From: Candidatus Eiseniibacteriota bacterium
Lineage (GTDB): Bacteria; Arandabacterota; Arandabacteria; JAGLYR01
Assembly (NCBI GenBank): GCA_023132135.1
Contig: JAGLYR010000147.1
Coordinates: forward strand, 1 to 46,222
Direction of reading: 5' to 3'
DNA length: 46,222 nt
A program made the position numbers and the translations under genes. Positions 248 to 38,790 of the stretch are shown here, piece after piece (the first letter of the stretch is position 1; the number at the start of each line of letters is the position of its first letter). The notes beneath the pieces were generated by a model. It made no database searches. It worked only from the letters and a program-made list of their open reading frames with translations, and was not told where the DNA came from.

Positions 248-1666
248 ATGAGATGGATGACACTTCTGGCTGTTGCAGGAATTCTGGCCGCAGTGGCCGG
301 GGTCGCGAACGCGACCCCCTACTGGAGTCCTGAGTACATCCAGTCCCTCAGGGACAGACCCGTTGTCAAGAGCGAGACCCATGAATTCCTGGCGTGGCAG
401 TCCCGGGATCATGACTACATGCTGGAATATGAACGGGTGGTCCAGTTCATCGCGTCGCTTCAGGTTATGGACCCCGAGGATCCCGACTACGGCGGACTGC
501 GGGAAGCCGAACACATGCTGAATGTAATCCAGACGGACAACACTTCCGAGCTGATCTGGGTTCTCAGCCGCTACCGGGAGATGACGGGCGATACGCAGTA
601 TGACGACCGCGTCCAGGCGGCATGGACGTACGTCATGAACTCCCCGGCATACCTGGAAGAGGGCGGCTCGGCCGCGACTACGGGTTACTATCGCATCTAC
701 AACTGCGGCTGGGCCCTGAGAGCAGAGATGAAATACCGCCAGGTGTACGGTGACGATACCTACACGGACTACGCGGACACGTGCGCAACCTACCTGGTCG
801 ACCACAATCTTCAGCTCACCGTGGATCCGACCTACATGATCATCAACCCCACGGTTCTGGCCTGGGCGGGCGGGAATCTGTACGCCTACGGCGTGGATCG
901 GGAGAACGAAACCTATCGCGAGTACGGGATGTTCCGGGGACGACGTGTAAAAAACTGGGTCGCAGCGGATTCCCTTCTCCTGGGCAAGGAAGCCTGGGCC
1001 ATGTCCGGCGGTGCGATCATGTGGGGAGTCCTGAACTCTTACTATCAGTACTATCCTGACAGTCTGGAGATCTGGGCGGGCGCGCTCGGACCCCATATGG
1101 ACACCTATTCCGATCCCGGGCAGTTCCAGAACGCCTGGAACGCCTGGTATTCTCTCGGTCATCTGGCAGCGGGCGAGACCCTGAACAGCCCGGACTATCT
1201 GGCGAACCATCATGCTCTGGTGGACACCCTTCTTTTCGAAGACGGGGACGACGACGGAGGCATTCCGGCCAAGCCGGCGGATACCGATGACATGGACCAC
1301 GCCTGGATTGCCAACTACCAAGCCTTCATGGGGCTCGATGCCCTCATCAGCACAACCGACATAGCGTGGAACACCCCAGGAAATGGTCTTAATGTTGTAC
1401 TTGAAGACAACTGGCCTAACCCGTTCAATCCATATACGACTATATGCTTCTCTATTCCTAACGCGGGGAGCGTTTCTCTTCAGGTGTTCAGCGTCGAGGG
1501 ACGGATGGTGAGGACGCTCCTGGACGGCTACTGCCAGGAGGGCCACGGGGTCGTGTCGTGGGACGGTCTGGACGAATGCGGCCGGACCGTCTCCCCCGGC
1601 GTGTACTTCTACAGACTTGCCGCAGGCGGCGAGGCCCTCAGTCGCAAGATGGTGCTGGTGAAGTAG
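248..1666 (+). CDS. Secreted protein of unknown function with C-terminal FlgD-Ig / T9SS type-A sorting-domain-like CTD
   Basis: 472-aa ORF. GGGGAGGG Shine-Dalgarno lies 7 nt before the ATG. Signal peptide MRWMTLLAVAGILAAVAGVANA. The C-terminus (NWPNPFNPYTTICFSIP...GVYFYRL...RKMVLVK) matches the CTD shared by five other ORFs in the window. The central domain is unassigned. Confidence 0.8.
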   Translation: MRWMTLLAVAGILAAVAGVANATPYWSPEYIQSLRDRPVVKSETHEFLAWQSRDHDYMLEYERVVQFIASLQVMDPEDPDYGGLREAEHMLNVIQTDNTSELIWVLSRYREMTGDTQYDDRVQAAWTYVMNSPAYLEEGGSAATTGYYRIYNCGWALRAEMKYRQVYGDDTYTDYADTCATYLVDHNLQLTVDPTYMIINPTVLAWAGGNLYAYGVDRENETYREYGMFRGRRVKNWVAADSLLLGKEAWAMSGGAIMWGVLNSYYQYYPDSLEIWAGALGPHMDTYSDPGQFQNAWNAWYSLGHLAAGETLNSPDYLANHHALVDTLLFEDGDDDGGIPAKPADTDDMDHAWIANYQAFMGLDALISTTDIAWNTPGNGLNVVLEDNWPNPFNPYTTICFSIPNAGSVSLQVFSVEGRMVRTLLDGYCQEGHGVVSWDGLDECGRTVSPGVYFYRLAAGGEALSRKMVLVK

Positions 1667-1687
1667 AATGTATCGAGGTGAACCCGA

Positions 1688-4600
1688 TTGAGACAAGTCC
1701 GGCCATCCAGTCTGCTGATCACGTTGGGGATACTCGCGACCTTGAGCTCCGCAGCTGCGGGTGAGACGCTCATGCTCAGGGTCACATCCACTCCCTATGA
1801 GATCGCGCGGCTGGATTCCGGTTTCGATCGCGTGTCGATGGAGGGCTTCTCACGTTCCCTGGTTCCAGGCAAACCGCGGTTGCCCGCCAGAGTCGTCCAC
1901 GTTCCTCTCCCGCCCGGCGTAAGGGTATCGTCCGTCGAACTCGCTGCTTCGCACACCGTGCTGCTCCCCGGCCGCTATCGCGTGGAGGCCGCCGGGCCCA
2001 TGACTCCAGCGGGTGCAGATCCCCGGGATACGGAGGAGTGCCTGGAAACCTGGTCCGCCAATCACGAGAACACCTACGGATCCAACAAACCATGCCCGCC
2101 TTCGCCCATCGAACTGCTGGGCCAGAGCGCCAGGGGATCGGAGGTCTTCGCTCGTGTGAGATTCTCACCTTTCCGCTACCGTCCCCTCTCCGAAACACTG
2201 GAGCTCGTTGAATGGGCCGACATCGTGGTCCACTACGAACCACTGGACACGCCACAGCCGCTTTTCACGAAGAGGAGTACGGGCGCCCGCGACGGGTCCT
2301 TCCCCTACGTCATTGTCACTACCGATTCACTCTCTGCGGCCGTCGACACCCTGGTAACGTGGAAGACGTACGTGGGGCTGCCGACGCAGGTGGTCACGGA
2401 TTCCTGGATTGCATCGAATTACGCCGGTGAGGACATCCAGGAGAAGGTCCGCAATTTCCTGATCGACAAGTACACGGACTGGGGCATCCAGTGGGTGCTG
2501 ATCGTCGCAGACAGTACCGCAGTCCCGATGCGGGCCTGTCATCCCGTTGCCAACAGCCCGTACGGCATACTCCCCACGGACTACTACTACGCGGATCTGA
2601 CGGGCGATTGGGATTCGGACGGCGACGGGTACTATGGCGAATACGGTAACGACGACTACGACTACGTCGCCGAGGTCTTCGTGGGGCGGATCCCTTTCGG
2701 GGAGTTCGACGCCGTGAAGTCCGTTTGCGAGAAACTGGTGGCCGTCGAGGCCGACACCACAGACTGGAAACACGATGCCCTTCTCATGGGCGCGATCCTG
2801 AATTTTGAGAACGAGGCCCATATGGGACGGCCCCGAACGGACGGGGCGGAACTCATGGAACAGCTCCGGACCGACGTTTTCCTGAACGGAACCAGACACA
2901 CGTTGTACGAGAAGGAAGGCATCGAACCCTGCCCCTACGAATGCACGTGGCCTATCGAACTGTACCGGGTCCGGCAGATGTGGAGCGCCGGAGACTATGG
3001 ACTGGTCACGTGGCACTCTCACGGGCTCTTCGATGAGGCAAAGCGCAAGTACTGGGAATGGGACGACGGCGACAGTATTCCCGAATACGCTGAGCTGGAG
3101 CGATTCCCATTCTTGTGGAGCCAGGAGGCCGATTCGCTGGACGACGAGCATCCCGGAGTCGTTTTCGCTTGTGCCTGCGACAACGGGGATCAGGATGAGC
3201 CCGTGAATCTGGCTTTCGCACTTCTGAAAAACGGGGCTTCCTCCATCGTCGCGGCAACGCGTCCCGGCTACTACACCAACGGCTGGCTGGACAAGAGCGA
3301 CGGCGGCATTGCGTCTCTCGACTATTATTTCTTCGACGCCCTTGTTGGTGGGCAGAAGGTCGGCGAAGCCCTGTTCACAACCAAGGAAGTCTACGCGGAT
3401 AGTTTCTTCTGGTGGGATGTCGCCTCTCATCAGAACATGCTCACTTTCTGCCTCTACGGAGACCCTGCTTTTGTTCAGCCCGGGATCGGGGCCCTGACAC
3501 CGGAAATCGTGGTCCAGTCCCCCGCGGCGGGTGAGAACGGCATCCCCGTGTGGTCCGGAATTGAGATGACCTTCTCCCGCCCGATGAAGGCTCAGACTAT
3601 CAATGGGAACTCCTGGATTGTTACAGGGCAACGGTCGGGTCCCCACTGCGGCGTGGTGGACTACGATCCGGCCACACTTACGGCTCACTTCGCCCCGGAG
3701 CAGGAATTCGCTCCCGGCGAGCAGGTAACCGTTGTCCTGACCGACACCGTCATCTCCACAATGAGTCTGCGACTGGAGCATCCTTACGTCTGCGGTTTCT
3801 TCACCCGATCCTTTGACGGGACCGGGGACTTCGCGACCGCCGACACACTGGAGATCGCCGGGTATCCGTCTGCCGTGGCCGCCGCGGATCTCAACGCAGA
3901 CGGTTTGCCGGACCTTGCGGTCACCCCAAGTCAGGGCCATCAGGTCAGTGTTTTCCTCAACCTCGGCAACGGGCACTACGCCGGCGCTGTCGACTTCCCC
4001 GGTGGGGTAACCCCGGCAGCCATCGCACCCGGAGATCTTGACGGGGACGGTGCGGTCGACCTGGCTGTGGCCGGCGATGGGACCCTGACCCTTCTGTTCA
4101 ACGACGGCAACGGTTCCTTTCCGTCCCAATCCACCTACACCGTCGGCGACAGCGCGTCTGCCGTGGTGGTAGGTGAGATCGACGGTGACGGAGATCTCGA
4201 TCTGGTCGTGGCCGATCGAAGCCTGGACAGCGTGTGGGTGTTCTTCAACGAAGGCGACACCCTGAGCGCGCCGACGGTCCTGTGGGCGGGCGCCCGGCCC
4301 ACTGCCCTGGCGTTTGGTGACATTGACGGCGACGGCTGGATGGACCTGCTCTGTGCACTCCGGGAGAGCGATTCGCTGGCGGTCTTCATCAACGAGGGCG
4401 GGAGCTACGGCGCCAGAACCACAGTGTTGCTGGGAGGACCCTCGAGCGCTGTCACCTGCGGGGACCTGAACGGAGACACCTGGATCGACGTGGCCGTCAC
4501 CGATCCTGCTGCGGATTGCGTCCGGGTCTTTCTGAACCAGGGCGGAGTCCTGCTGCCGGATTCAACCTACAGTACCGGGGGCGCGCCCCTGGATGTGGCC

Positions 4601-5149
4601 ATCAGCGACTTCGATGGCGATGGGGACCTTGATCTCGCAACCGCCGACTACGGCGGGGCCGGCGTGACAGTTTTCCTAAACAATGGAGACGGCTTTGTCC
4701 CAACGGAACGTCCCGTTGCCGCCGGGGTGGCGGGTTTAGCCGTGTGTGATTCGGACAACGATTCCGATGTCGACCTGGTGGCGGCCCTCGCCGCTCCCAA
4801 CAGCAATGTGATGGTGTTGCTTAACTCATCTGATCCGACGGCCGCCGACGAGGGGAGCGGAATCTCCATCTCCCGCCTAGCCCTGCACCAGAACACACCC
4901 AATCCGTTCAACCCTGTGACCGAAATCCGGTTTGACCTGCCCCGGGCAATGCCGGTTTCCCTCGCCGTCTACGATGTGCGCGGCCGCCTGGCCCGCCGCC
5001 TGATGAACGCGAACCTGCCTGCGGGCGCACATCGGGTTGTCTGGGACGGCCACAACGAGCATGGCCGGCAGGTCGCGTCGGGAATCTACCTGTACCGGTT
5101 GGAAACAGGTCGGGAGACGTTGGTGCGAAAGATGGTGGTCGTTCGGTAG
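1688..5149 (+). CDS. Peptidase C25 (gingipain-like) family protein with Ig-like domain, FG-GAP/VCBS repeats and T9SS-type CTD
   Basis: 1153-aa ORF with a TTG start and GAGGTGA SD 6 nt upstream; it begins 22 nt after the previous stop. Signal peptide present. C25-like pattern: YVIVTTDSL...LVTWK, candidate catalytic His in TWHSHG and Cys in VFACACDNG. There are about seven D-x-D-G-D-G-x-x-D FG-GAP repeats. CTD reads NTPNPFNPVTEIRFDLP...GIYLYRL...RKMVVVR. Confidence 0.75.
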   Translation: MRQVRPSSLLITLGILATLSSAAAGETLMLRVTSTPYEIARLDSGFDRVSMEGFSRSLVPGKPRLPARVVHVPLPPGVRVSSVELAASHTVLLPGRYRVEAAGPMTPAGADPRDTEECLETWSANHENTYGSNKPCPPSPIELLGQSARGSEVFARVRFSPFRYRPLSETLELVEWADIVVHYEPLDTPQPLFTKRSTGARDGSFPYVIVTTDSLSAAVDTLVTWKTYVGLPTQVVTDSWIASNYAGEDIQEKVRNFLIDKYTDWGIQWVLIVADSTAVPMRACHPVANSPYGILPTDYYYADLTGDWDSDGDGYYGEYGNDDYDYVAEVFVGRIPFGEFDAVKSVCEKLVAVEADTTDWKHDALLMGAILNFENEAHMGRPRTDGAELMEQLRTDVFLNGTRHTLYEKEGIEPCPYECTWPIELYRVRQMWSAGDYGLVTWHSHGLFDEAKRKYWEWDDGDSIPEYAELERFPFLWSQEADSLDDEHPGVVFACACDNGDQDEPVNLAFALLKNGASSIVAATRPGYYTNGWLDKSDGGIASLDYYFFDALVGGQKVGEALFTTKEVYADSFFWWDVASHQNMLTFCLYGDPAFVQPGIGALTPEIVVQSPAAGENGIPVWSGIEMTFSRPMKAQTINGNSWIVTGQRSGPHCGVVDYDPATLTAHFAPEQEFAPGEQVTVVLTDTVISTMSLRLEHPYVCGFFTRSFDGTGDFATADTLEIAGYPSAVAAADLNADGLPDLAVTPSQGHQVSVFLNLGNGHYAGAVDFPGGVTPAAIAPGDLDGDGAVDLAVAGDGTLTLLFNDGNGSFPSQSTYTVGDSASAVVVGEIDGDGDLDLVVADRSLDSVWVFFNEGDTLSAPTVLWAGARPTALAFGDIDGDGWMDLLCALRESDSLAVFINEGGSYGARTTVLLGGPSSAVTCGDLNGDTWIDVAVTDPAADCVRVFLNQGGVLLPDSTYSTGGAPLDVAISDFDGDGDLDLATADYGGAGVTVFLNNGDGFVPTERPVAAGVAGLAVCDSDNDSDVDLVAALAAPNSNVMVLLNSSDPTAADEGSGISISRLALHQNTPNPFNPVTEIRFDLPRAMPVSLAVYDVRGRLARRLMNANLPAGAHRVVWDGHNEHGRQVASGIYLYRLETGRETLVRKMVVVR

Positions 5150-7711: not shown

Positions 7712-7785
7712 TGGGGAGTCGTCTAATGGCAGGACTGCAGACTCTGGATCTGTCTATGGGGGTTCAAATCCTCCCTCCCCAGCCA
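7712..7785 (+). tRNA. tRNA-Gln (anticodon CUG)
   Basis: Hand-folded cloverleaf. Acceptor TGGGGAG/CTCCCCA with the U1-A72 pair typical of bacterial tRNA-Gln. D arm GTCT-AATGGCA-GGAC. Anticodon arm GCAGA-CTCTGGA-TCTGT (anticodon CTG). T arm GGGGG-TTCAAAT-CCTCC. Discriminator G and an encoded CCA. Confidence 0.9.
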
Positions 7786-7811
7786 GAAAAGCAGAGATGA
7801 AGGAAACACGC

Positions 7812-7887
7812 GGCCCCATCGTCTAGTGGTCGAGGATAGATGGTTCTCAGCCATCAGACCGGGGTTCGATTCCCCGTGGGGCTGCCA
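7812..7887 (+). tRNA. tRNA-Glu (anticodon CUC)
   Basis: Aligns to the classical bacterial tRNA-Glu layout (GxCCCCxTCGTCTAG...GGGGTTCGAxTCCCC...GCCA). Anticodon arm GATGG-TTCTCAG-CCATC (anticodon CTC). CCA is encoded. The acceptor stem closes with a G1-U72 wobble. Confidence 0.9.
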
Positions 7888-7936
7888 GCACGCGTATGCG
7901 CCGGGCGATTATCGCCCGGCGTTTGCGCGTGCTGGC
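7884..7936 (+). terminator. Compound hairpin immediately after tRNA-Glu (terminator-like)
   Basis: Outer arms GCCAGCACGCG (7884-7894) and CGCGTGCTGGC (7926-7936). Inner hairpin GCGCCGGGCGA-TTA-TCGCCCGGCG is followed by TTTG. Confidence 0.5.
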
Positions 7937-8045: not shown

Positions 8046-9299
8046 CTACTCCTGAAGCACACGCAGTAATGCGACGGGATCCACAAACAGGTTAAAGCCC
8101 TCCCGCTCGTTTCCGTCAAGTCCTCTGGCATTCGGGACGCTGGCGCGGTCGTATCGGAAGCCGGCTACCCGTCCATAGCTCATCCCCAGACCCCATCCGG
8201 AGGTCGTGCCGCAAATGTCCCCGTCTGGGTCTCTGTAGATTCCTCTTCGAAGTGTGATTACGTTGGCCAAGGTCACCTCCCACCCCGTGGTCTTGACGGT
8301 TGACTCATCCGAGAGCTGCGATTCCTTCCAGTCCCATGTCCTTCCGTAGGAGACGAGGGGGCTGAAGAACCGCGCGGCCCACCCGAGACCCATGTCATCC
8401 AGAACGGCCCTGATGCCCGGAGGAAACCCGATGGCTCCGCGAAGCGCCCATCCTTCTAGCTTCTCATTCGGCAGAGGAGCCGTTTGCTCGACATCAATGA
8501 ACGCGATCTCGGCATCGTTGTAGCCCTTCCTTCCCTGCCCATAGCCGGCATCCAGCCGCAGTCCCCCCAACGGATCGAGAAAGCCATCCAGCGGAGGAAG
8601 GAGTCCATCAAAATCGATCGAGTTGTAGGGAGTCACCCGCGCCAGGAATCCCCAGTCCTTGGCATCGCCTACTGCTTTTGCTCCCTCGCAGGTCCACGCT
8701 GTAGGTTTGGCAAGAACAACATGGACCTTGTGAGAAGCATACCCGAGGCTGAGGTCGCCAAACCGACTGATGTGGGGGCCGTCGGCTCCCAGAAGCCGGA
8801 GCATGCTGTCGACCAGCTCCCCTACACTCACACCGATTCCCCAGGACTTCGCCTCTTCCCACGACGAGAAGAAATCGCCGGGTTCGCCGCTCTCGCCCAT
8901 CGCCTGCCATATGCCGTATTCCAGTCTCGTCTTGCCGATGTCAAGGGGACGACCTGCTAGATGCAGGGTTGCTCCGAATGCGCCGACTGTGAAGCGACTC
9001 GTCTTGAGGTACACGTCATCCGCGAGACTTGGGATGAGCTGTGTTCTGCCCCAATCGTACCGAAGGCCATGGTGATAACCCAGGAGCGCCGGATTGGCCC
9101 AGTAGTTGGGATCGCCGCCCCAGAAGACGGCCGTCCCAACCCTTCCCATACCGGCCGCCCGAACAGAGGGATTGATCGCGAGACATGGAGCGGCGGCTTC
9201 AGATACGGCCTCCGACGGCGCGGATGCCACCAGGAGGAATCCTATGACGATCGCGGCCACAACGAGATGCTTATTTCTGTACATGGCAACCCGCTTCAT
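8046..9299 (-). CDS. Outer-membrane beta-barrel protein, PorV/PorQ/FadL-like
   Basis: 417-aa ORF. Signal peptide ...VAAIVIGFLLVASAPSEA. N-terminal pattern INPSVRAAGMGRVGTAVF...DPNYWANPALLGY resembles the (I/L)xPxxRaxGMGxxGxA...NPA motif of PorV/PorQ/FadL-type barrels. The remainder is rich in G/Y/W/D alternating strands. Assigned by motif only. Confidence 0.5.
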   Translation of the reverse strand: MKRVAMYRNKHLVVAAIVIGFLLVASAPSEAVSEAAAPCLAINPSVRAAGMGRVGTAVFWGGDPNYWANPALLGYHHGLRYDWGRTQLIPSLADDVYLKTSRFTVGAFGATLHLAGRPLDIGKTRLEYGIWQAMGESGEPGDFFSSWEEAKSWGIGVSVGELVDSMLRLLGADGPHISRFGDLSLGYASHKVHVVLAKPTAWTCEGAKAVGDAKDWGFLARVTPYNSIDFDGLLPPLDGFLDPLGGLRLDAGYGQGRKGYNDAEIAFIDVEQTAPLPNEKLEGWALRGAIGFPPGIRAVLDDMGLGWAARFFSPLVSYGRTWDWKESQLSDESTVKTTGWEVTLANVITLRRGIYRDPDGDICGTTSGWGLGMSYGRVAGFRYDRASVPNARGLDGNEREGFNLFVDPVALLRVLQE

Positions 9300-9302: not shown

Positions 9303-9332
9303 AGTAATTCGAGTAATCCGGAGTAATTCGGG
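9303..9332. repeat. Three tandem ~10-bp repeats AGTAAT(T/C)CG(G) directly upstream of the OMP start codon
   Basis: AGTAATTCG at 9303-9311, AGTAATCCGG at 9312-9321 and AGTAATTCGGG at 9322-9332. They lie between the ATG (9299, minus strand) and repeat copy A. Confidence 0.7.
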
Positions 9333-9341
9333 ACAAAGCCG

Positions 9342-9498
9342 CTATTAGCAGAATTCGTTACCCACCTTGGGATTACGACCTTTCGTTCTTGGCCCGAGCA
9401 ATCGTCCCAGCATTTTCTCCAGCCAGCCGCTCTCCTGTGTTTCCATCCGCTCTCAAGCCTACCTGCATTCCTCAAACAGATCAAGAACTTGTGGATCA
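9342..9498. repeat. 157-bp noncoding repeat, copy A
   Basis: Direct repeat of 12884-13040 with no indels and 15 mismatches (about 90% identity). The first 52 nt (9342-9393) are identical in both copies. Confidence 0.95.
9456..9484 (-). promoter_or_regulatory. Candidate minus-strand promoter inside repeat copy A, TTGATC-17 bp-TAGGCT
   Basis: On the minus strand, -35 is at 9484-9479 and -10 at 9461-9456. Both hexamers are identical in copy B while the 17-nt spacer carries 3 substitutions. This would give a leader of about 150 nt to the OMP start. Confidence 0.35.
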
Positions 9499-9510
9499 TG
9501 TTCGACTCCC

Positions 9511-9539
9511 TTGACTCTGCCCCTCGCCCATTGTATCCT
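9511..9539 (+). promoter_or_regulatory. sigma70-like promoter, TTGACT-17 bp-TATCCT
   Basis: -35 at 9511-9516 and -10 at 9534-9539, followed by GGAGG (9549-9553) and the ATG at 9560. Confidence 0.5.
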
Positions 9540-9559
9540 TGATGCGTCGGAGGTTCCCC

Positions 9560-10198
9560 ATGTCCGCATCGCCTCGTTCAATCTTCGTCTCTGCTGCACT
9601 CATCGTCCTCATTCTGTGTCTTGGCAGCTGCGCCAAGGATGCCACCAAGCCCGAGCCTCAGCCGGAACCCCATGCACGCTCCACGCTGATGGGTACCATC
9701 GAGTTCTTTGCCCAGGCGCATGAGAACGAGGATATCGAAGCCTACACGGAATGCCTGCACCCAGAGTACGCCTTCTGGTTCTCAGAGGATGACCGAGATG
9801 ATCCTAACTGGGGCTGGCAAGACTGGATCGGCACAGTTGAAGATGTCCAGGTCACTGCGGCCATGTTTGAAGCGGAGAGCGTGAGGGACATCCGTATGAC
9901 CCTGACGAATCTGATAACGAACCCCGACTCACTGGGTTTCTACGTGGGAGGAGAGACCCGCAGCAAGCACAGTTTCACGTATTTCTGGGCGATCTTCGCT
10001 GCTGACATCCACGTTGTCGAGGAAACGCAGGATCAGGAGATCGATCGCTGGGTCGACGGCCGAGCGCACATCTTCTTGCGTCCGGATCCCAACGAGAGCA
10101 ATCTCTGGACCATCTGGAAGATCGAAGACAAGGGCAACGAGCACAAGGGCACCGAGGACACCTCTTGGTCTGGAATCAAGGCACTATTCCGGAAGTGA
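9560..10198 (+). CDS. Lipoprotein, tandem paralog A (unknown family, possibly NTF2/SnoaL-like fold)
   Basis: The ORF is open from 9539, but GGAGG lies 6 nt before the ATG at 9560. That start gives MSASPRSIFVSAALIVLILCLGSC (lipobox LGSC). Roughly half its residues are identical to the next ORF. The C-terminus reads DTSWSGIKALFRK. Confidence 0.75.
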   Translation: MSASPRSIFVSAALIVLILCLGSCAKDATKPEPQPEPHARSTLMGTIEFFAQAHENEDIEAYTECLHPEYAFWFSEDDRDDPNWGWQDWIGTVEDVQVTAAMFEAESVRDIRMTLTNLITNPDSLGFYVGGETRSKHSFTYFWAIFAADIHVVEETQDQEIDRWVDGRAHIFLRPDPNESNLWTIWKIEDKGNEHKGTEDTSWSGIKALFRK

Positions 10199-10209
10199 GG
10201 TAGCCGAGA

Positions 10210-10848
10210 ATGATGGCCGGGAGAAAGCACCAACTCACAGTCCTCTGCTTGATGGTTGTGCTTGCTGGCTGTTCGAACGAGAGCCTGAAACTGCCCCCCA
10301 TAAAGTTACCTGTCATCGAGCCCGACCGCACGACGATCGCCGGCCTGTTCGACGTCTTCCAAGACGCGCACCAGGATCGTGAAATCGATTCCTTCGCAGA
10401 GTGTCTGCATCCCGAGTACATCTTCTGGTTCTCCGAAGATGATCGGGACAGTCCCTCATGGAACTGGAACGACTTCATCAACAAGATCGAAGACCGGGAT
10501 GTTACTGATGAGATGTTCGAAGCCGAGATAGTGACGGACATCCAGATAGACTTCACGAATCTCACTTTCGATCCCGACACGCTGGATCTCTGGATTCACG
10601 AAGATACGGGAGATCCAGAACCGTTCACGTACTACTGGGGCGTCTTTGCAGTAGACATGCATGTTGTCGAGCAGACCGAGGATGGCTTGATCGATCACTG
10701 GGTGGATGGCCGTGCCCGGATGTACGTTCGGCCGGATCCGGCGTTCGAGGGCCTCTGGACCATCTGGAAGATCGAGGATCTGGGCAACGAGCACAAAGCC
10801 ACCGATGACACCTCTTGGTCCGGAATCAAGGCACTATTCCGGAAGTGA
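10210..10848 (+). CDS. Lipoprotein, tandem paralog B
   Basis: 212 aa. Lipobox in MMAGRKHQLTVLCLMVVLAGC. Shared blocks with paralog A: ECLHPEY.FWFSEDDRD, MFEAE, HVVE.T.D..ID.WVDGRA and LWTIWKIED.GNEHK. The C-terminus is the same DTSWSGIKALFRK. Confidence 0.8.
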   Translation: MMAGRKHQLTVLCLMVVLAGCSNESLKLPPIKLPVIEPDRTTIAGLFDVFQDAHQDREIDSFAECLHPEYIFWFSEDDRDSPSWNWNDFINKIEDRDVTDEMFEAEIVTDIQIDFTNLTFDPDTLDLWIHEDTGDPEPFTYYWGVFAVDMHVVEQTEDGLIDHWVDGRARMYVRPDPAFEGLWTIWKIEDLGNEHKATDDTSWSGIKALFRK

Positions 10849-10863
10849 GGTTCTGATTCGCCT

Positions 10864-12834
10864 TCACTCCTTACTCGCAGGCATCTCCCCACACACCTCA
10901 CTCAGGAACGTGCGCATCATCACGCGCACCGAATCCCAATCACACCAGATAAGCGGCCAGCCGAAGTACGCCGTGCTCCCGAGATCCGGGTCGCCGGAAC
11001 TGTCCACGATCAGGGCAGCGCAGTCGCCCTGCATGACCTGGGTGGAATCCAGGCCCGGCGGCACGAAGTAATCGAACATGTACAGGGCGCGCGCGTTGAC
11101 GTACGGGTTGATGTTGTCGGATTCGAGAACCTCTACCTCCCAGAGATACGTCGTGTCCGTCTCCGTGAAGTAGGGCCACGTGTCTCCAAAAGGAAGATCG
11201 GGGTAGACGCCGGGAATGGCCGAAATGGCTCCCCGAAAGGCATCGTGGCCGACGATGAACAGCTCCCGAATGCCGAAGGCGGTGTAGCTGATGGGAATGT
11301 TCTGGTCCGGCCGGCAGATTTCTTCGCGGTACAGGAAGGGGTAGTTGGGCCGGCCCCGGCAATCCGGGTCCAGGGACAGCCCCGGCACCTGGCCGATCAT
11401 GATCACGTTTCCCCCGACCTTGACGTAGGCATCGAGATAGCGGTTTCCCCTGTGGAACAGCTCCCGAAGACAGCTGCCCTCCTCGTCATAGAAATCGACG
11501 TACCAGATGATCGTGCGGTGCCGCCCGGCCAGAGAAACGGGAGGCGCGTCCAGCTCGTGCACCAGACAGTCCCACTCGGTGAAGGGGTATCCGGAGAGAA
11601 TGTGGTCGAGAAACCGGGCCTCGGTCTCGTCGGCATTATGACCCTCCCAGGAACCGAAGGAATGGGGAATGCCCGATGCCTGCGAGTCGTCCACCAAGAG
11701 CAGCGCGTACGTGTCACCCGTGTTCGGCCCCGCCTCTACCGTGAACTTGAACAAGCATACCGATACCTCACCCAGCTCGTCGATGGACTGCACGTACAGG
11801 ACGTGGTTGCCCAGCTCCGGCAGGAACGTCCCCCCGTTCTCGGGATACTGTGTGGAACCCGAGTACCATCGGGTCCAGACCGTGCTATCCTCCAGCGCGT
11901 ACCGGTATCCGGCAACCCGGGCGCCGTACTCCGATGCGTCGGCCTCCCACTGGAATGAGATCGGCACGCCGAGAAAAATCTCCGCCACGCGGCCCACGTA
12001 GTACGGCCCGCCATTCACCCTATTCTTCCGTGTTCCCAACACCCCGCCGTGGATCGTGATTTCTGCGGACCGGATCAGAACCGGGTCGAAGCAGCACCAG
12101 TTCTGGCCGGGCACCAGGATCTGTTCCATGGCACCGGCGTTGTCCTTACCGACGACGGCAAAGGAGTTGTGGCGGCCGGTCTCGGGGAGCATTCGCGCCA
12201 CTCCGGAGAACACGACATGCGTGCAATCAGCCCCGACCCGCGACCAGGTCGAGTCGACGGCGAGCATGATCCCCCCGGGGTTGATCTTGTAATAGAAGGA
12301 ATCCACCGTCCCTTCGTCGGGATCGAAACTGGTCCACTCGAAGAGAATGTTCGACCCGGTGGCGCTGCAGTAGTTCCGGTCACAGGGACCGCGCGTGATC
12401 GTCGTCTGGGGCGCCACAGTCTCTGCCGTGAAACTGCGGTGGGCAGGGGTGGGGTCGTGCATCCCCCCGTCGTCGACGGCCTTGATCCAGAAGGTGTGAA
12501 AACTCGCGTAGTGGGACCAGTCATCAGAAGAGGGAACGCAGCTGTCGGCCGTCACCGCAAACGTGCTCCCCGTCCCTGTGGTCCACTGCCACCGGGTCGT
12601 ATCCTCCCAAGCGAAGTAATACCCAACGACCTGGCCATCGGAGTCATTCCCAAACCAGCTTATGTCCACGCTGAAGGAGGTGATGCCGGCGTGTGGGGGC
12701 GCGCTGGAAAGCAACGTCTCGGGGGCCTGGTTCGGAATCTCGTTGCCGAACTCCGATTGCGTGCAGCCGCAGACGAGAAGAAGTACGGCGAGAATGCAAA
12801 CCCGACCATGCTGCTCCGGTGCCGTCTTCTGCAT
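10864..12834 (-). CDS. Large lipoprotein with three repeated beta-sandwich-like modules and a C-terminal domain of unknown function
   Basis: The ORF is open to the GTG at 12876. The ATG at 12834 gives MQKTAPEQHGRVCILAVLLLVCGC (lipobox). The repeated pattern W.G.D.DG.V.GY.Y...W occurs three times. The C-terminal half (ALLLVDD...YVKVGGNVIMIG) is faintly GATase1/ThuA-like, with low confidence. Confidence 0.65.
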   Translation of the reverse strand: MQKTAPEQHGRVCILAVLLLVCGCTQSEFGNEIPNQAPETLLSSAPPHAGITSFSVDISWFGNDSDGQVVGYYFAWEDTTRWQWTTGTGSTFAVTADSCVPSSDDWSHYASFHTFWIKAVDDGGMHDPTPAHRSFTAETVAPQTTITRGPCDRNYCSATGSNILFEWTSFDPDEGTVDSFYYKINPGGIMLAVDSTWSRVGADCTHVVFSGVARMLPETGRHNSFAVVGKDNAGAMEQILVPGQNWCCFDPVLIRSAEITIHGGVLGTRKNRVNGGPYYVGRVAEIFLGVPISFQWEADASEYGARVAGYRYALEDSTVWTRWYSGSTQYPENGGTFLPELGNHVLYVQSIDELGEVSVCLFKFTVEAGPNTGDTYALLLVDDSQASGIPHSFGSWEGHNADETEARFLDHILSGYPFTEWDCLVHELDAPPVSLAGRHRTIIWYVDFYDEEGSCLRELFHRGNRYLDAYVKVGGNVIMIGQVPGLSLDPDCRGRPNYPFLYREEICRPDQNIPISYTAFGIRELFIVGHDAFRGAISAIPGVYPDLPFGDTWPYFTETDTTYLWEVEVLESDNINPYVNARALYMFDYFVPPGLDSTQVMQGDCAALIVDSSGDPDLGSTAYFGWPLIWCDWDSVRVMMRTFLSEVCGEMPASKE

Positions 12835-12883
12835 GAGAGCCAAGGGTATCCTTCTCCGCCAGGGGCATTTCGGCACAGAGCCC

Positions 12884-13040
12884 CTATTAGCAGAATTCGT
12901 TACCCACCTTGGGATTACGACCTTTCGTTCTTGGCTTGAGTGATCGTCCCAGTGCTTTCTCCAGCCGGTCGCTCTCCTGTGTTTCTATCCACTCTCAAGC
13001 CTACTTGGATTCCTGAAACAGATCAAGAGCTTGTGGATCA
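12884..13040. repeat. 157-bp noncoding repeat, copy B
   Basis: Same orientation as copy A (offset 3542 bp). The identical 52-nt core is at 12884-12935. Confidence 0.95.
12998..13026 (-). promoter_or_regulatory. Candidate minus-strand promoter inside repeat copy B, TTGATC-17 bp-TAGGCT
   Basis: Hexamers identical to copy A, with -35 at 13026-13021 and -10 at 13003-12998. The implied leader to the ATG at 12834 is about 155 nt. Confidence 0.35.
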
Positions 13041-13083: not shown

Positions 13084-13112
13084 TTGACTTGTTGGACCGA
13101 ATCGACTATAAT
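13084..13112 (+). promoter_or_regulatory. Near-consensus sigma70 promoter, TTGACT-17 bp-TATAAT
   Basis: -35 at 13084-13089, 17-nt spacer, -10 at 13107-13112, in an AT-rich patch about 58 nt upstream of the ATG at 13170. Confidence 0.65.
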
Positions 13113-13169: not shown

Positions 13170-14669
13170 ATGTCTGCGAACCCCTCCACCCACCGTCCCG
13201 GCCGAGCGCTCCATGCCGCGGCCTCGTTCCTGATCCCGGCGGCACTCCTGCTTCTCCTCACCCCAACCGACGCCGGGTCCCGCTTCTGGCCGAACAAGGA
13301 CTGGGAGAACCGCAAGCACAAGCTGAAGGTCTGCCTCAGCGATCCTCGCGGCCGGTGCCCCGCCGGCATGGCCGACTCCATCAAGACTGCCATCGCCATC
13401 TGGGACAGCACGGGACTCACGTGGCAGTTCACCTGGACCGACAGCTGCGATTCAGCCGACATCAAGATCCAATGCAAGGTCGTCACCGGCCTCGGCAAGT
13501 GCAGGCAGCATCCGAGTGGACTCTCGGGAGGAACCTACACGATCGATCGCGCCACCATCGACATCAACCCCTTGAAGGACTGGGGCTGGTGCGACGACAA
13601 GCAGGAGATCGTCGATGTGATCATGCACGAGCTGGGCCATTGCGCCATGCTGATGGACATCAATACGAACGATCAGACGCGCTTGATGCGGGCGGCGCGG
13701 AGAGAGCAGGGGCACAGCCGTGGACTCTCCAAGGCAGACAGCCTCGAGGCGGCATCGTCGGACACATCCGGGACCGTCGGAGTGAATTCCGCACCCCAGG
13801 GCGCCGCGAGACACAACGAGTACTCGGGAATCATCACGGCCGCACCAGGCACCCCGCCCCTCAACCTCAGCCAGGCGCAGGATATCGTTCTCACGGCCTT
13901 CCAGCCGGAGTATCTCGAGATCCTGGAATACTGGCCGATGGGCGAGGAGGAGATTTTCTGGCGCGCCCTTCCCATCAGCGACCAGGACGAGATGCAGGTC
14001 TACTTCGTGGCGATCGACTACGAGAGAGGCTGGGAAGTGCGCCAGGGGATCCTCTACGTCACAAACTTCCCGTGGGAGCCGGGATGGGCGCCGGTCGCCG
14101 TCGCCCCCGCGGATACGGTCGTTCCCAACGACACTTCGCAGGTGATTCTCGACTACCAGGCCTCTACGCACCCGAGCGGATTGGTGGAGGTCGTATCGTT
14201 CGCCTGGGTGGTGGACGATACCATCTGGGTCGAGGGCGGACCCGTGACCTCCATCATGCTACCCGAGGGCCCTCATCTCGTTGAACTCCTGGCCATGGAC
14301 GAGTACGGTCTCACCGACCGGGATACGATGTTCGTGCTCGTCGAGGAATCCGTGACCGGCGTCCTCGAGGAGAGGGACCTTCCAGCTCCTGCGAACCTGC
14401 GCCTCGATTTCCAGGTTCCCTTCCGCATGGGCGGACGCCTCGCGATCCGTTACGATCTCCCCCGCCTCTCGGACGTGGAGCTCACTGTGTACGACACGCG
14501 GGGCCGGCGAGTCGCCACCCTGGTGAAGGGTGTCCTTCCTCCCGGCCAGCGCGAAACCGCCTGGAACCTCCGGGATTCCCATGGGCATCCCGTGGCGCCA
14601 GGCATCTACTTCTGCTCCCTCAGGGTCGGCGAATCGCGGACTCTCCGGAAGATGGTGCTAGTGGACTAG
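13170..14669 (+). CDS. Secreted zinc metalloprotease (HExxH, matrixin/M10-like pattern) with divergent T9SS-type CTD
   Basis: The ORF is open from the GTG at 13152. GGGAGG lies 5 nt before the ATG at 13170. Signal-like ...ALHAAASFLIPAALLLLLTPTDAGS. Zinc motif VIMHELGHCAMLMD. C-terminal domain: RLAIRYDLPRLSDVELTVYDTRGRRVATL...GIYFCSLRV...RKMVLVD. Confidence 0.75.
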   Translation: MSANPSTHRPGRALHAAASFLIPAALLLLLTPTDAGSRFWPNKDWENRKHKLKVCLSDPRGRCPAGMADSIKTAIAIWDSTGLTWQFTWTDSCDSADIKIQCKVVTGLGKCRQHPSGLSGGTYTIDRATIDINPLKDWGWCDDKQEIVDVIMHELGHCAMLMDINTNDQTRLMRAARREQGHSRGLSKADSLEAASSDTSGTVGVNSAPQGAARHNEYSGIITAAPGTPPLNLSQAQDIVLTAFQPEYLEILEYWPMGEEEIFWRALPISDQDEMQVYFVAIDYERGWEVRQGILYVTNFPWEPGWAPVAVAPADTVVPNDTSQVILDYQASTHPSGLVEVVSFAWVVDDTIWVEGGPVTSIMLPEGPHLVELLAMDEYGLTDRDTMFVLVEESVTGVLEERDLPAPANLRLDFQVPFRMGGRLAIRYDLPRLSDVELTVYDTRGRRVATLVKGVLPPGQRETAWNLRDSHGHPVAPGIYFCSLRVGESRTLRKMVLVD

Positions 14670-22396: not shown

Positions 22397-24244
22397 ATGC
22401 GAGCCCTTTTCATCACGCTGGCAATTCTGCTCGTTCCCGCCTCTGCGTCGACCCAGGAAGCGGTCCAGACCGACTGGTCGGGCGGCGGGGGCGCGGCCGG
22501 GCCCGTCGCCGACTGGGGCCACCGGTTCGATTCCGCGTCGGGCACATCCTCGCTGTCCGTGCCCGGGCAGCTGGCGCTCTCGGGGACGGCTCTCGCCTTT
22601 CCGTCCGTACACCTTCTGAGTGACGCCTACCAGGGCACGATCGGCGTCGCCGTGGGAGACGTCGACGGGGACGGCGACATGGACGTCGTCGGCACGGCGC
22701 AGACGACGCAACTCGTCACGCTGTTCGTCAACGAGGGTGGGGACCCCGTCACCTGGTCCGAACAGACCATTGCCACCCCGGCCGGCGCTGCCGGTGTGGA
22801 TCTCGCCGACATCGACGGCGACGGGGATCTCGACGTGGTCATCATGTGCGTGGCGCCCCGTAACAAGATCCTCCTCCGGCTCAACGAGGGCGGCGACCCC
22901 ATCATCTGGAGCAATCACGTGATCCAGAATCCGTGGTACGACGCCTGGGAGATCTCCACCGGCGACGTCAATGGCGACGGCCACATGGACGTGATGTGCA
23001 CCTGCTGGTCCATGGGCGATGTCTCCTGGTGGCGCAACGACGGTAACAATCCGATTACCTGGACAGAGAACCTCGTGGACGGGAACATCTTCGGCGCCCA
23101 CTCGGTCCGCGGCGCCGATTTCGACGAGGACGGTGACATGGATCTGGCGGTGGCGGCCGGCATGGCCGACAAGATCGCCGTTTACTGGAACGATGGCCAA
23201 GACCCTATCGGCTGGACGATGCAGGTCGTCCGGGAGAACTTCGAGGGGGCCCGCTCGGTCTGGATCGGCGACATCGATCGGGACGGGGACCCCGACATCG
23301 CCGGCATCTGCTGGGAGAGTGACCTGGCCTGGTGGCGGAACGACGGCGGCGATTCCGTCTCGTGGACCGAGCAGACAATCTGCACCGACTGCCACGGGGG
23401 ACATGCCTGCTGCATCGCGGACATCAACGGCGACGGCCGGCCGGACATCCTGGGCGCCTGCTCCAACAGCAACAAAATCGCCTGGTGGGAGAACGGCGGC
23501 GGCAATCCCATCACGTGGACCGAGCGCATCCTCGCCGGCCATTGGGAGGGCGCCATCACCGTCCGCGCCGCCGACCTGGACGGCGACGGCGACGTGGATC
23601 CGGTCGGCGCGTCCTGGACCATGGGCGAGTTCTCCTGGTGGGAGGCAACGGCATTCGCGTCCCCGGGAGACCTTACAAGCTCGATCCTCGACACGGGGGA
23701 GAAATCCCGTCTCGGGGCGATCGACTGGACGTCGATCGAACCCGCCGGCACGTCGGTCGCCTTCCAGGTTCGCAGTTCAGACGATCCCGCTGATCCCGGG
23801 GCCTGGTCGGCCGACATCACAAACCCCGGCGCTCTGCCTGAGCCCCTCGACCGTTACATCCAGTACCGGGTCTTCCTCGATACCACCGACCCCGACGTCT
23901 CCCCCATCCTCCACGACGTGACCTTCGGACCCGGGATGACCGCCGTAGAGATCGTCACTTCGGACCTGCCGGCCGCCGGTCTCTCCGCACACCCGAACCC
24001 CTTCAATCCTGCGGTCACCATCGCCTTCGGTCTCAGAACGGAATCGTCCGTCCGCCTGGACGTCCTCAACGTGGAAGGACGCCGCGTGCGAAGCCTGGCC
24101 GGGACCGTCATGGCCGCCGGCGACCACCGGATCGACTGGGACGGCCGGAACGACCACGGACAGGCCCTGCCGTCGGGCGTCTACTGGGTCCGCCTGGAGA
24201 CCCCAGACATCCAGGACACGCAGAAGCTCGTCCTCCTCCGATGA
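22397..24244 (+). CDS. Secreted FG-GAP/VCBS-repeat beta-propeller protein with T9SS-type CTD
   Basis: 615 aa. GAAAGGAG SD. Signal peptide MRALFITLAILLVPASAST. There are about eight repeats of the type GDVDGDGDMDVV...W. CTD reads HPNPFNPAVTIAFGL...GVYWVRL...QKLVLLR. Confidence 0.85.
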   Translation: MRALFITLAILLVPASASTQEAVQTDWSGGGGAAGPVADWGHRFDSASGTSSLSVPGQLALSGTALAFPSVHLLSDAYQGTIGVAVGDVDGDGDMDVVGTAQTTQLVTLFVNEGGDPVTWSEQTIATPAGAAGVDLADIDGDGDLDVVIMCVAPRNKILLRLNEGGDPIIWSNHVIQNPWYDAWEISTGDVNGDGHMDVMCTCWSMGDVSWWRNDGNNPITWTENLVDGNIFGAHSVRGADFDEDGDMDLAVAAGMADKIAVYWNDGQDPIGWTMQVVRENFEGARSVWIGDIDRDGDPDIAGICWESDLAWWRNDGGDSVSWTEQTICTDCHGGHACCIADINGDGRPDILGACSNSNKIAWWENGGGNPITWTERILAGHWEGAITVRAADLDGDGDVDPVGASWTMGEFSWWEATAFASPGDLTSSILDTGEKSRLGAIDWTSIEPAGTSVAFQVRSSDDPADPGAWSADITNPGALPEPLDRYIQYRVFLDTTDPDVSPILHDVTFGPGMTAVEIVTSDLPAAGLSAHPNPFNPAVTIAFGLRTESSVRLDVLNVEGRRVRSLAGTVMAAGDHRIDWDGRNDHGQALPSGVYWVRLETPDIQDTQKLVLLR

Positions 24245-24251: not shown

Positions 24252-26369
24252 CTATGGCAACTGATCCACGAGCACGAGATCGGAGCCGGTGATTTCGAGG
24301 CGATCGCAGATAACAGAGCGTCCGTCGGGGGACACGTCGATGTTGATGGCAAGGAAGTACGCGCTGGAGATGACGGGGGAGGCGACGCCCGTCGACCGAT
24401 CGAGGAACCGGAGCGTGAGATCCCCGTCGTAGAGGCAGAAGAAGTAGATCCCGTCGGCGGACTCCCGCCACCCGCAGGGCACCACCGTTTCCGGTTCGTT
24501 GACGACGCAATGCTCATCGGTTCCGTCCACGAGGGATTCCCAGACACCCGACGTGTCGGCCCGGGAGTACAGGAGGTGGCGGCCGTCCCGGGACTCGGCC
24601 ATGCGGAAGACATCCTTTTGCATGAGATCGGTCCGGCCGGAGCCGTCGGTCCGCATCTTCCAGACCCACCACGCTTCGTCCCGCTCCGATTTCCCGTAGA
24701 TCCAATCCCCGTCGCGCGACCAGCCGAGACACTGCTCGTGCCGCTGTGAGGACGTGACCCGGCGGACTTCACCGGTTTCCCGGTCCGCCACGTAGATGGA
24801 CGTGTAGCTCCCCGGCGCCGCGCTGAAGGCCACGTACCGCTCGTCGTAGGACCAGTGGTGGTTTTCGATGTAGGCGTTGTCGAATTCGGTCAACTGCCTC
24901 GGGTTCTTCCCGTCCACCCCGGAGACCCAGACCTGCGGACTGCCCGACCGGGTGGAGAGGAATGAGACGTACGATCCGCCCGGGGAATACTGAGGGGCGT
25001 AGTCCTGAAGCGTGGAAGCAATGAGCGGAGACGAGGGCCCCGCCTCTCCGTCCATTTCCCCCAGGCGCACGACCCAGATGTCGCAGCGCACGGACTGTTC
25101 CTCGAACACCATGGCCGGCCCATCGATCGCCGACGACGGGCGTGTGGGGCGGTCGGCGCGCGTGGGAAGCCACTGGAGGGTTCCCTCTTCCACATAGAGA
25201 CGCCACATTCGGAATCCCCCGGCGTGGGTCGGCCCGGCGGTGAAGACGATCGATTTCCCGTCGGGTGTCCAGTCGAACCCGCTGACACTGTGCTGCGAGT
25301 AGGTGAGGCGGTGGACGTCTCCCCCCTCGGCGGGAATCCAGAAGAGGTCCCGGAGGTTCGTGCGATCCCCCCGGAGGAAGGCGATCCTGCGGCCGTCGGG
25401 CGAGAACGCCGGCCGGTAGTCACCGAGCGTCCCCGGCGCGGGCAGCGTGAGCTCCCGGGATTGTCCGGTCGCGAAGGAGAATAGGTGGAGCCGGAGCGGG
25501 CGGCCCGCGTCCGGCCGGGCGGAATACGCGAGCCGACGGCCGTCGGGAGACCAGTCCAGCCCGGCGAAGCCGACCGGCGTATCCAGGATCTTCCGGGCCG
25601 GCCCGCCGATGGCGGGAAGTGTATAGATCGATTCCCCCTCCTCTTCCTCGACCGCGTAGGCCAGCGACGCGCCGTCCGGCGACCAGCACGCGTAGAATTC
25701 GCTCTTCGGCGTGTCCGTCAGGCGAAGCGGGTTCTCGGTGTTCCGCTGCTTCACGTAGATGTCGTAGTTCCCGCTTTCGCCGCCGTCCCAGGAGAAAGCG
25801 ACCCGCGTGCCGTCGGGCGAGAGGGCCGGACAGATCTCCCGGCCCTCGTAGCTGGTGAAGGGAATCTCCTCGAGCGGCGCCGGGGGAAGCGACACGGAAG
25901 AACGCGTGCGGGAGAGAAAGGGTGTGAGAGCAATCGCAACGACGATGACGACGGCGACGGCGAGAACGCCGTGCAGTCGCCGGTCGGTACCCACGGATTC
26001 CGGCCTGGCCGGGGACCGGACGGTTGCCACGATCCGGTAGCCGCCCTTGTGAATTGTCTGGATGTAGCGCGGGTTCCTGGAATCGTCCCCGAAGACGTGC
26101 CGGAGCTGAGAGATGGCCTGGGTGAGGGCTTCTTCGTTCACCACGGCTCCGCTCCAGACGGTGTCCATGAGATCGGCCCTGGAAAGGACCTGCCCGGGCC
26201 GGTGCGCCAGACAGGTGAGCACGTGCATGACGCGCGGTTCCAGCGCTGAGGACGCGCCCGCGCGCCGGACGCGATTTAGAGAAGGCTCGACGAGCCTGTC
26301 GCCGAGCTGGAAGGGCCCGGCGTCCGAGGGACGCCGGGGTAGGGAGGTCTCCGGGCCTGTACCGTTCAT
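24252..26369 (-). CDS. ToxR/CadC-like membrane-anchored transcriptional regulator: N-terminal OmpR-type winged helix, one TM, periplasmic TolB-like (PD40/WD40-like) beta-propeller
   Basis: The ORF is open to 26543. The ATG at 26369 (MNGTGPE...) is the first start that does not add a non-domain extension, so the start is uncertain. wHTH: LEPRVMHVLTCLAHRPGQVLSRADLMDTVW...AISQLRHVFGDD...IQTIHKGGYRIV. TM: LHGVLAVAVVIVVAIALTPFL. There are at least seven SPDG..(V/I/L)A(F/Y)S PD40-type repeats. Confidence 0.8.
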   Translation of the reverse strand: MNGTGPETSLPRRPSDAGPFQLGDRLVEPSLNRVRRAGASSALEPRVMHVLTCLAHRPGQVLSRADLMDTVWSGAVVNEEALTQAISQLRHVFGDDSRNPRYIQTIHKGGYRIVATVRSPARPESVGTDRRLHGVLAVAVVIVVAIALTPFLSRTRSSVSLPPAPLEEIPFTSYEGREICPALSPDGTRVAFSWDGGESGNYDIYVKQRNTENPLRLTDTPKSEFYACWSPDGASLAYAVEEEEGESIYTLPAIGGPARKILDTPVGFAGLDWSPDGRRLAYSARPDAGRPLRLHLFSFATGQSRELTLPAPGTLGDYRPAFSPDGRRIAFLRGDRTNLRDLFWIPAEGGDVHRLTYSQHSVSGFDWTPDGKSIVFTAGPTHAGGFRMWRLYVEEGTLQWLPTRADRPTRPSSAIDGPAMVFEEQSVRCDIWVVRLGEMDGEAGPSSPLIASTLQDYAPQYSPGGSYVSFLSTRSGSPQVWVSGVDGKNPRQLTEFDNAYIENHHWSYDERYVAFSAAPGSYTSIYVADRETGEVRRVTSSQRHEQCLGWSRDGDWIYGKSERDEAWWVWKMRTDGSGRTDLMQKDVFRMAESRDGRHLLYSRADTSGVWESLVDGTDEHCVVNEPETVVPCGWRESADGIYFFCLYDGDLTLRFLDRSTGVASPVISSAYFLAINIDVSPDGRSVICDRLEITGSDLVLVDQLP

Positions 26370-31506: not shown

Positions 31507-31548
31507 GTCTCCCGGGCGTCCTACTTCGCCCTCTCCCTGAACTTCGCC

Positions 31549-38743: not shown

Positions 38744-38790
38744 ATCCGAACTCCTTCCATTCGGGTGGAAATCACTCCAACGGAGTGCGA

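Follow-up and report, generated by a model that had tools for sequence, protein, structure and literature searches.

A duplicated intergenic repeat with an identical 52-nt core, a putative promoter and leader cassette, precedes two unrelated envelope genes in Candidatus Eiseniibacteriota

Introduction

Homologous upstream regions that stand before unrelated genes in one genome have been catalogued as putative mobile promoters (PMPs; Matus-Garcia, Nijveen and van Passel 2012, PMC3575422). In that work, PMPs are defined by 80% identity or more across a minimum of 50 nucleotides (nt) within −150 to −50 of unrelated genes, more than 4,000 families are reported from 1,362 genomes, mostly as pairs and with a mean identity of 92%, and the authors leave open whether selection or recency accounts for the identity. 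Here we describe a pair of intergenic direct repeats on contig JAGLYR010000147.1 (assembly GCA_023132135.1) of Candidatus Eiseniibacteriota bacterium, of which positions 1 to 46,222, the whole stretch of DNA that was analysed, are called the window. Copy A (9342-9498) and copy B (12884-13040) lie upstream of two minus-strand genes, one encoding an outer-membrane beta-barrel and the other a lipoprotein, and share an identical 52-nt core. By sequence criteria, the pair is most likely one more two-copy PMP.

The resemblance to PMPs is close. Positions 9349-9449 differ from their in-register partner at 11 of 101 nt (89% identity), the stretch is non-coding and overlaps no gene, the downstream genes are not paralogous, there is no associated insertion sequence (IS) element, and function is likewise unproven. 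Unlike PMPs as described, a mere 3.5 kb separates the copies here, which occupy adjacent divergent intergenic regions, and their identity falls into a three-zone profile with a 52-nt identical island. PMPs are, moreover, a descriptive class and not a mechanism.

Other described systems share some of these properties. Correia elements of Neisseria, ERIC and REP/REPIN sequences are also short non-coding repeats that stand before unrelated genes and can supply promoters or leaders; however, they are multi-copy, carry terminal inverted repeats or palindromic hairpins and use defined insertion sites, whereas this repeat has two known copies and lacks inverted ends, a target duplication or a stable hairpin. 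Regulons of the extracytoplasmic function (ECF) sigma type likewise place a common cis site before outer-membrane protein and lipoprotein genes, but such sites are motifs of 15-30 nt that arise independently, whereas the present repeat spans 157-179 nt related by descent. The riboswitches and leader RNAs of Rfam offer a parallel in the possible long 5′ leader position and the highly conserved block; unlike them, this repeat has neither an Rfam match nor excess folding stability.

Results

A direct repeat with an invariant core

Base-by-base alignment reproduced the pair reported in an initial annotation of this DNA: 9342-9498 and 12884-13040 form a direct repeat without indels and with 15 mismatches in 157 nt. 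As that annotation had also stated, all 15 are confined to the distal 105 nt (specifically to 9394-9487), and the 52-nt blocks 9342-9393 and 12884-12935 match at every position. On the minus strand the core reads GCCAAGAACGAAAGGTCGTAATCCCAAGGTGGGTAACGAATTCTGCTAATAG, ending in TGCTAATAG, and contains a 23-bp imperfect palindrome, CGTAATCCCA-AGG-TGGGTAACG. A 24-mer from the core occurred exactly twice in the window when up to three mismatches were allowed, against zero occurrences expected. A repeat search extended the pair to 9320-9498 and 12862-13040, or 179 nt at 88% identity, with the 22-nt proximal extension (9320-9341 and 12862-12883; 16 of 22 identical) contributing six mismatches. Identity thus runs from 73% in the proximal zone through 100% in the core to 86% in the distal 105 nt, and then stops sharply at 9498 and 13040. 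The zones are as follows.

9320-9341, minus strand: copy A proximal 22 nt, fading similarity, between the core and the gene-specific ribosome-binding region (repeat search)
9342-9393, minus strand: copy A core, 52 nt, identical to copy B (alignment)
9394-9498, minus strand: copy A distal 105 nt, 86% identical to copy B, containing the candidate minus-strand promoter, with a sharp end at 9498 (alignment, promoter scan)
12862-12883, minus strand: copy B proximal 22 nt, fading similarity (repeat search)
12884-12935, minus strand: copy B core, 52 nt, identical to copy A (alignment)
12936-13040, minus strand: copy B distal 105 nt, with a sharp end at 13040 (alignment)

Thirteen of the 15 mismatches are transitions. 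With the plus strand of copy A as the reference, they comprise seven C>T, four A>G, two C>G, one T>C and one G>A, a spectrum that is strand-asymmetric as well as clustered within 9394-9487, with adjacent substitutions near the core border (CC>TT, CA>TG and CAT>TGC). On the copy A side only, the stretch that separates the core from the outer-membrane protein gene's start codon contains three AGTAAT(T/C)C units (9303-9330), spaced 9-10 nt apart; they are the reverse complement of GGATTAC in the core and have no counterpart at copy B.

We then asked how surprising an unchanged block of this length is. With 15 mismatches over 157 nt, a block of 52 nt chosen beforehand escapes them all with P = 0.0017, and a mismatch-free run of at least 52 nt anywhere has P = 0.026, or P = 0.0097 for the 179-nt alignment with 21 mismatches. 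The chance of roughly 3 in 10,000 initially given was therefore too small, and over-optimistic because its substitution rate was drawn from the variable part only. The identical island is unusual, yet not overwhelming.

The repeat itself is no assembly artefact, since an independent assembly breaks exactly where a 31-mer becomes shared between the copies: in a Logan assembly of the same reads (SRR13892599; k = 31 unitigs, a different assembler), contig L002 stops at window position 9371, one base before the end of the first 31-mer common to both copies (9342-9372). The same region is also present on a 156-kb contig of the NCBI metagenome-assembled genome (MAG) GCA_030630205.1, and the window corresponds to ENA scaffold_126 of sample SAMN18200501. 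The source is sample RS_13 from the Site-F cold seep in the South China Sea (PMC9357000).

Position of the repeat relative to genes and promoters

Both copies occupy divergent intergenic regions, each between a minus-strand gene on the left and plus-strand genes on the right.

8046-9299, minus strand: outer-membrane beta-barrel of 417 amino acids (aa), PorV/PorQ/FadL-like, downstream of copy A (weak family match, homologues)
10864-12843, minus strand: lipoprotein, 656-659 aa, downstream of copy B (gene call, alignment, structure model)
9560-10198 and 10210-10848, plus strand: two tandem lipoprotein paralogues, 212 aa each, right of copy A
13170-14669, plus strand: HExxH protein, 499 aa, with a FlgD_ig type IX secretion C-terminal domain, right of copy B (Pfam)

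The coding sequences facing the two copies had been called unrelated, and BLASTP agrees: the best E value was 1.0 between the outer-membrane protein and the 656-aa protein, and 1.8 between the plus-strand lipoprotein lipoA and the HExxH protein. Despite this, the copies stand in the same orientation with the core ending 40-42 nt before the two unrelated start codons, the exact distances being 42 nt to ATG 9299, 40 nt to TTG 12843 and 49 nt to the alternative ATG 12834. Homology fades where the gene-specific ribosome-binding sites begin, and this gene-proximal decay of identity suits a cassette fused to different genes.

To locate candidate promoters, we scored sigma-70-type sites with a position-weight matrix (PWM), scanning the minus strand of both copies. 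The best candidate was the same in each, TTGATC-17-TAGGCT in the same register, and its score ranks near the 95th percentile when set against the top scores of random 276-nt windows. Neither hexamer differs between the copies, three of the 15 mismatches fall in the spacer, and just 14 nt separate the candidate −35 box from the upstream edge of the repeat. The plus-strand genes have sigma-70-like promoters of their own.

9456-9484, minus strand: candidate sigma-70-type promoter of the outer-membrane protein gene, TTGATC (9484-9479), 17-nt spacer, TAGGCT (9461-9456); PWM score 8.9
12998-13026, minus strand: candidate sigma-70-type promoter of the 656-aa lipoprotein gene, TTGATC (13026-13021), 17-nt spacer, TAGGCT (13003-12998); PWM
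9511-9539, plus strand: sigma-70-like promoter TTGACT-17-TATCCT of the lipoprotein genes, outside the repeat by 12 nt; PWM
13084-13112, plus strand: sigma-70-like promoter TTGACT-17-TATAAT of the HExxH/FlgD_ig gene, outside the repeat by 43 nt; PWM

Since the plus-strand promoters lie outside the repeat and at a variable distance from it (12 nt to the −35 box at 9511, 43 nt to that at 13084), the repeat goes with the minus-strand genes. This assignment had been made from the outset, along with distances of 42-49 nt to the minus-strand starts and 12 versus 43 nt to the plus-strand promoters, which are correct; the constant 40-42-nt spacing of the core bears it out. ECF (GGAAC-N16-CGT) and sigma-54 (GG-N10-GC) spacings were also considered for the core and set aside, none being recognisable by inspection.

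A putative promoter and leader cassette

Taking these features together, we favor, with moderate confidence, the reading that the repeat is a duplicated upstream regulatory cassette, comprising a promoter and most of a 5′ untranslated region, placed before two unrelated minus-strand envelope genes. The initial annotation had proposed a shared cis-regulatory module for these genes, and the orientation, the distance, the in-register promoter and the agreement with the PMP definition support that proposal as far as anatomy goes. That canonical sigma-70 promoters are clearly in use in this organism, to judge from the scores given below, also speaks for the cassette.

We infer the steps from cassette to co-regulation as follows. 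Transcription of both genes would start about 7 nt downstream of the −10 box, near 9449 and 12991, giving leaders of about 150 nt with the identical core at approximately +56 to +107; by the standards of this genome such leaders are long, which would point to control exerted through them. The core would carry a shared recognition site for a trans-acting factor, either a DNA-binding regulator on the 23-bp palindrome, whose size would fit sites bound by dimeric regulators, or an RNA-level partner, and the two envelope genes would consequently be switched together. In a variant of this scheme, the core itself would be the RNA polymerase-binding or activator-binding region of a non-sigma-70 promoter, spanning roughly −58 to −7, with transcription starting just after TGCTAATAG and an ordinary leader of about 35 nt, so that the core would sit a typical 40 nt from the start codons. 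In either form, the cassette would have spread by local duplication or promoter capture and not by transposition.

Several observations weigh against this cassette. The candidate promoter scores 8.9, below the clear sigma-70 promoters of the same genome, which score 10.7-15.6 (tRNA-Gln, tmk, SBP, lipoA, the HExxH protein gene and a 472-aa gene; individually 13.7 for the tRNA, 14.3 for SBP, 11.9 for lipoA and 15.6 for the HExxH protein gene). It also lies 154-156 nt from the start codon, as compared with 12-114 nt for plausible candidates elsewhere in the genome. Twelve unchanged hexamer positions are expected at 14% divergence with P of about 0.16, and are thus weak proof, and no good match was found inside the core either for sigma-70 (by scan) or for sigma-54 (by inspection). 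Two copies of the repeat are known: no third copy or fragment was found in 65.6 kb of the same genome (14-mers, up to two mismatches), which includes an extra 20 kb on the same scaffold and MAG contig (L005, L007), and the regions upstream of more than 80 outer-membrane protein homologues, and of 656-aa family homologues, gave no match to the element. The lipoprotein paralogues contain a conversion-like tract at a distance of 600 nt, so that the identity of the core may have arisen without selection. That selection acts on the core is unproven, recent gene conversion is a live explanation for its identity, and the promoter activity and co-regulation ascribed to the repeat are predictions.

If the cassette is functional, it would offer a clean case from nature of regulation being rewired through duplication of a promoter and leader instead of a gene, and would place an outer-membrane barrel and a surface lipoprotein of an uncultured lineage under one control signal. 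The general significance is modest, because more than 4,000 PMP families have already been catalogued.

Local homogenisation as a possible explanation for the core

The two plus-strand lipoprotein paralogues between the copies show a second patch of raised identity. Their 3′ ends (10103-10201 and 10753-10851, the last ~100 nt) are 92% identical, compared with about 60% for the remainder, and 23 of 27 codons for identical residues are themselves identical. From its sequence, this patch looks like a gene-conversion tract, or else like the result of nucleotide-level constraint on the C-terminal LWTIWKIED..GNEHK..DTSWSGIKALFRK tail.

With local homogenisation at work here, the 52 identical nt could themselves have arisen by recent conversion. 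On this account, an old local intergenic duplication drifted to about 86% identity, after which gene conversion or repair over a short tract recently restored identity across 52 nt, leaving a neutral relic whose core has no function of its own. The relic would accord with the two known copies lying 3.5 kb apart, with the conversion-like tract at the same locus, with mismatches beside the core that are clustered as at tract borders or after multi-base events, with a run statistic that, post-hoc choice taken into account, comes to only about 0.01-0.03, and with the lack of a structure signal or known family. It leaves unexplained, however, why the copies share their orientation and, to within 2 nt, their distance to the start codons of unrelated genes, and why identity falls into three zones. 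A tract bounded exactly by the core is also awkward: RecA-dependent exchange usually needs about 25 nt of identity to start, the textbook figure for E. coli, whereas the longest identical run outside the core is 16 nt. We regard this neutral history as possible, if somewhat unlikely.

Coding potential and RNA structure of the repeat

Both copies are non-coding. No reading frame is conserved between them, each frame having a stop or non-synonymous changes; in the only frame open through the core, both ATG codons of copy A are lost in copy B (ATA and GCA) and all differences alter the amino acid. A concatenated six-frame translation of both copies, a query that would also have exposed spurious gene calls over copies elsewhere, returned no protein match at E ≤ 10 among 5.8 billion clusters. 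A small open reading frame acting as a leader-peptide attenuator was rejected, because start codons are not conserved and the leader contains no conserved small frame.

We next considered whether the repeat could act as a structured RNA. At the gathering threshold, the only Rfam matches in the window were two tRNAs (7712 and 7812), and at E ≤ 10 nothing fell inside either copy, the two chance-level matches both lying outside the repeat; the initial failure to recognise a known riboswitch or leader was thus upheld. Relative to dinucleotide shuffles, minus-strand folds of the whole element had z-scores of +0.27 and −0.90 and plus-strand folds had z-scores of +0.44 and +0.07, and those for the core, the core plus hairpin and the two putative leaders were −1.09, −0.53, −0.03, −1.18, +0.37 and −1.65. 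Minimum-free-energy folds of the distal part differ between the copies, and no base pair within the repeat is changed on both sides in the two sequences compared. One hairpin, UGGGACGAU(U/C)...GGUCGUAAUCCCA, recurs in the minimum-free-energy folds of both copies, with a single U-to-C change that keeps the pair (U-G to C-G), although one event in two sequences proves nothing. The repeat therefore matches no known RNA and, from the two sequences compared, is without detectable structure.

These results bear on the possibility that the 5′ leaders of the two mRNAs contain a structured cis-regulatory RNA, whether riboswitch-like, an RNA thermometer or a protein-binding platform. Such an RNA would include the core within the transcript if the distal promoter is real, and could draw on the recurring pair-keeping hairpin, on the predominance of transitions among the substitutions and on five substitutions that lie in predicted stems as G-U-compatible changes. 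Against it stand fold energies like those of shuffled sequence (z between +0.44 and −1.65), distal folds that are unlike between copies, the lack of double-sided pair changes and the empty Rfam search. A shared way of hiding the ribosome-binding site is not evident either, because the sequences beside the two start codons differ. The structured 5′ leader suggested in the initial annotation consequently fares poorly, and we consider an RNA of this kind improbable.

Mobile and recombination elements

Direct copies bracketing a 3.4-kb block of three genes, tRNA genes located 160 nt beyond the neighbouring gene, and an identical core with diverged arms that is superficially att-like could also point to a mobile or recombination element, such as a MITE (miniature inverted-repeat transposable element), an IS end, an integron attC site, an attL/attR pair of a phage or island, or the template and variable repeats of a diversity-generating retroelement (DGR). 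We find this extremely improbable. No integrase, transposase or reverse transcriptase is encoded within about 30 kb, the nearest integrase-family gene being of the Xer type and lying just past the right end of the window, over 30 kb from the repeat; the similarity of 86% outside the core is not what att arms show; and plasmid, phage and viral collections gave no match, with blastn of the 179-mer against the plasmid and phage collections returning nothing. Base composition gave no island signal.

Individual element types were examined in turn. An origin from a MITE or IS was rejected on an inverted-end score of 5-6 against a null mean of 5.7-5.8, the lack of a target-site duplication and the presence of two copies in 65.6 kb. 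An attC site was rejected because neither R'' RYYYAAC nor R' GTTRRRY is present on either strand, there is no stable or palindromic fold, and the flanking genes are divergent. A DGR repeat was rejected because the mismatches are not adenine-specific, both copies are intergenic and the window encodes no reverse transcriptase.

Further copies and conservation in other genomes

We also searched for further copies beyond the 65.6 kb. An exact 20-mer of the core palindrome had no match in JGI metagenomes and viral contigs, and none in GTDB-representative genomes, a collection that does not hold this MAG (a unique 37-mer of the scaffold is also absent), so that the latter negative says nothing on the rest of the genome. 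In comparisons of 84 loci of outer-membrane protein homologues (80 from JGI and four others), the lowest E value reached by nhmmer or blastn searches with the element was 3.8, and k-mer enrichment upstream of these homologues yielded only coding-like words, none from the core. Relatives of the 656-aa family at 55-56% identity showed no similarity to the element. Across both families the homologues are only 30-56% identical in protein, which makes the comparison weak. The closest relative of this family, at 74% identity, is represented by three tandem paralogues on one 37,454-bp JGI contig (metagenome 3300042731), preceded by gaps of 507, 337 and 140 nt. The copies in the genome at large and the conserved orthologous loci that the initial annotation had asked for were thus absent from the stretch of genome, the public collections and the homologue loci covered, a coverage that leaves the rest of the genome and close relatives outside.

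HslU, 6-phosphogluconate dehydrogenase and transketolase each form singleton clusters at 90% identity among approximately 15 billion proteins, and the lineage has therefore been sampled once. On this evidence the lineage can be called FCB-like and nothing narrower; it carries type IX secretion components, and one distant homologue bears the label Latescibacterota.

A broader reading would treat the 52-nt core as the signature of an undescribed cis-regulatory element, which might be a DNA operator combined with a promoter, or else a leader RNA to which a protein or small RNA binds. The core would then be the mark of a regulon made up of outer-membrane, lipoprotein and type IX secretion-related genes in a deeply branching lineage, with further copies before other envelope genes in the MAG. 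We think this distinctly unlikely; if more genomic copies do exist, the invariant core would be a handle for defining the envelope regulon.

Flanking genes and other features of the window

The gene labels in the initial annotation hold in outline, with three qualifications. First, the PorV assignment of the 417-aa barrel is weak (PorV_fam, E = 1.3e-5, sub-threshold); the protein has 70 homologues, the nearest 46% identical, and the distant ones carry PF19572 or PF03349. One homologue is encoded divergently to an ECF sigma gene in another organism (L089). Second, the lipoprotein given as 670 aa is more likely 656-659 aa long: TTG 12843 is the start in the ENA gene call and is accompanied by an AAGGA ribosome-binding site, and an alignment (A4) agrees, placing the lipobox cysteine at residue 27. 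Its AlphaFold model (pLDDT 75.5) has N-terminal tandem sandwiches resembling immunoglobulin (Ig) or fibronectin type III (FnIII) domains and a C-terminal alpha/beta domain, and its top Foldseek matches are tandem FnIII/Ig arrays. Third, the 499-aa protein labelled a protease contains the HExxH motif but has no peptidase match in Pfam, where only the FlgD_ig C-terminal domain was found.

In relatives, members of the 656-aa lipoprotein family occur in tandem arrays of two to three paralogues beside PMT_2 glycosyltransferase and phosphodiesterase genes. On one such contig (L091, 7133-11532), the gene ends and downstream regions of the family are repeated, with about 80% identity over 205 nt.

Just downstream of the outer-membrane protein gene lie tRNA-Gln(CTG) and tRNA-Glu(CTC) (7712-7936). 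The pair is preceded by a strong TTGACA-17-TATTCT promoter ending at 7699 and directly followed by a 26-nt inverted repeat (7884-7909 and 7911-7936, 88% complementary).

Type IX secretion features are abundant in the window (248-5149, 13170-14669, 22397-24244, 31503-32702 and 36005-38800), which encodes a 1153-aa Peptidase_C25 protein resembling PorU, together with at least five proteins whose C-terminal domains are of the FlgD_ig or Por_Secre_tail type. The only DNA-binding regulator identified in the window is a 763-aa protein (24252-26543, minus strand) that combines an OmpR-type winged-helix domain (Trans_reg_C) with PD40 beta-propeller repeats and, by this domain composition, looks like a membrane-anchored one-component regulator of the ToxR/CadC type. 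Finally, a 931-aa DUF7901/GEVED/FlgD_ig gene contains a 300-nt internal direct repeat (36332-36631 and 38012-38311, 73% identical), probably a domain duplication.

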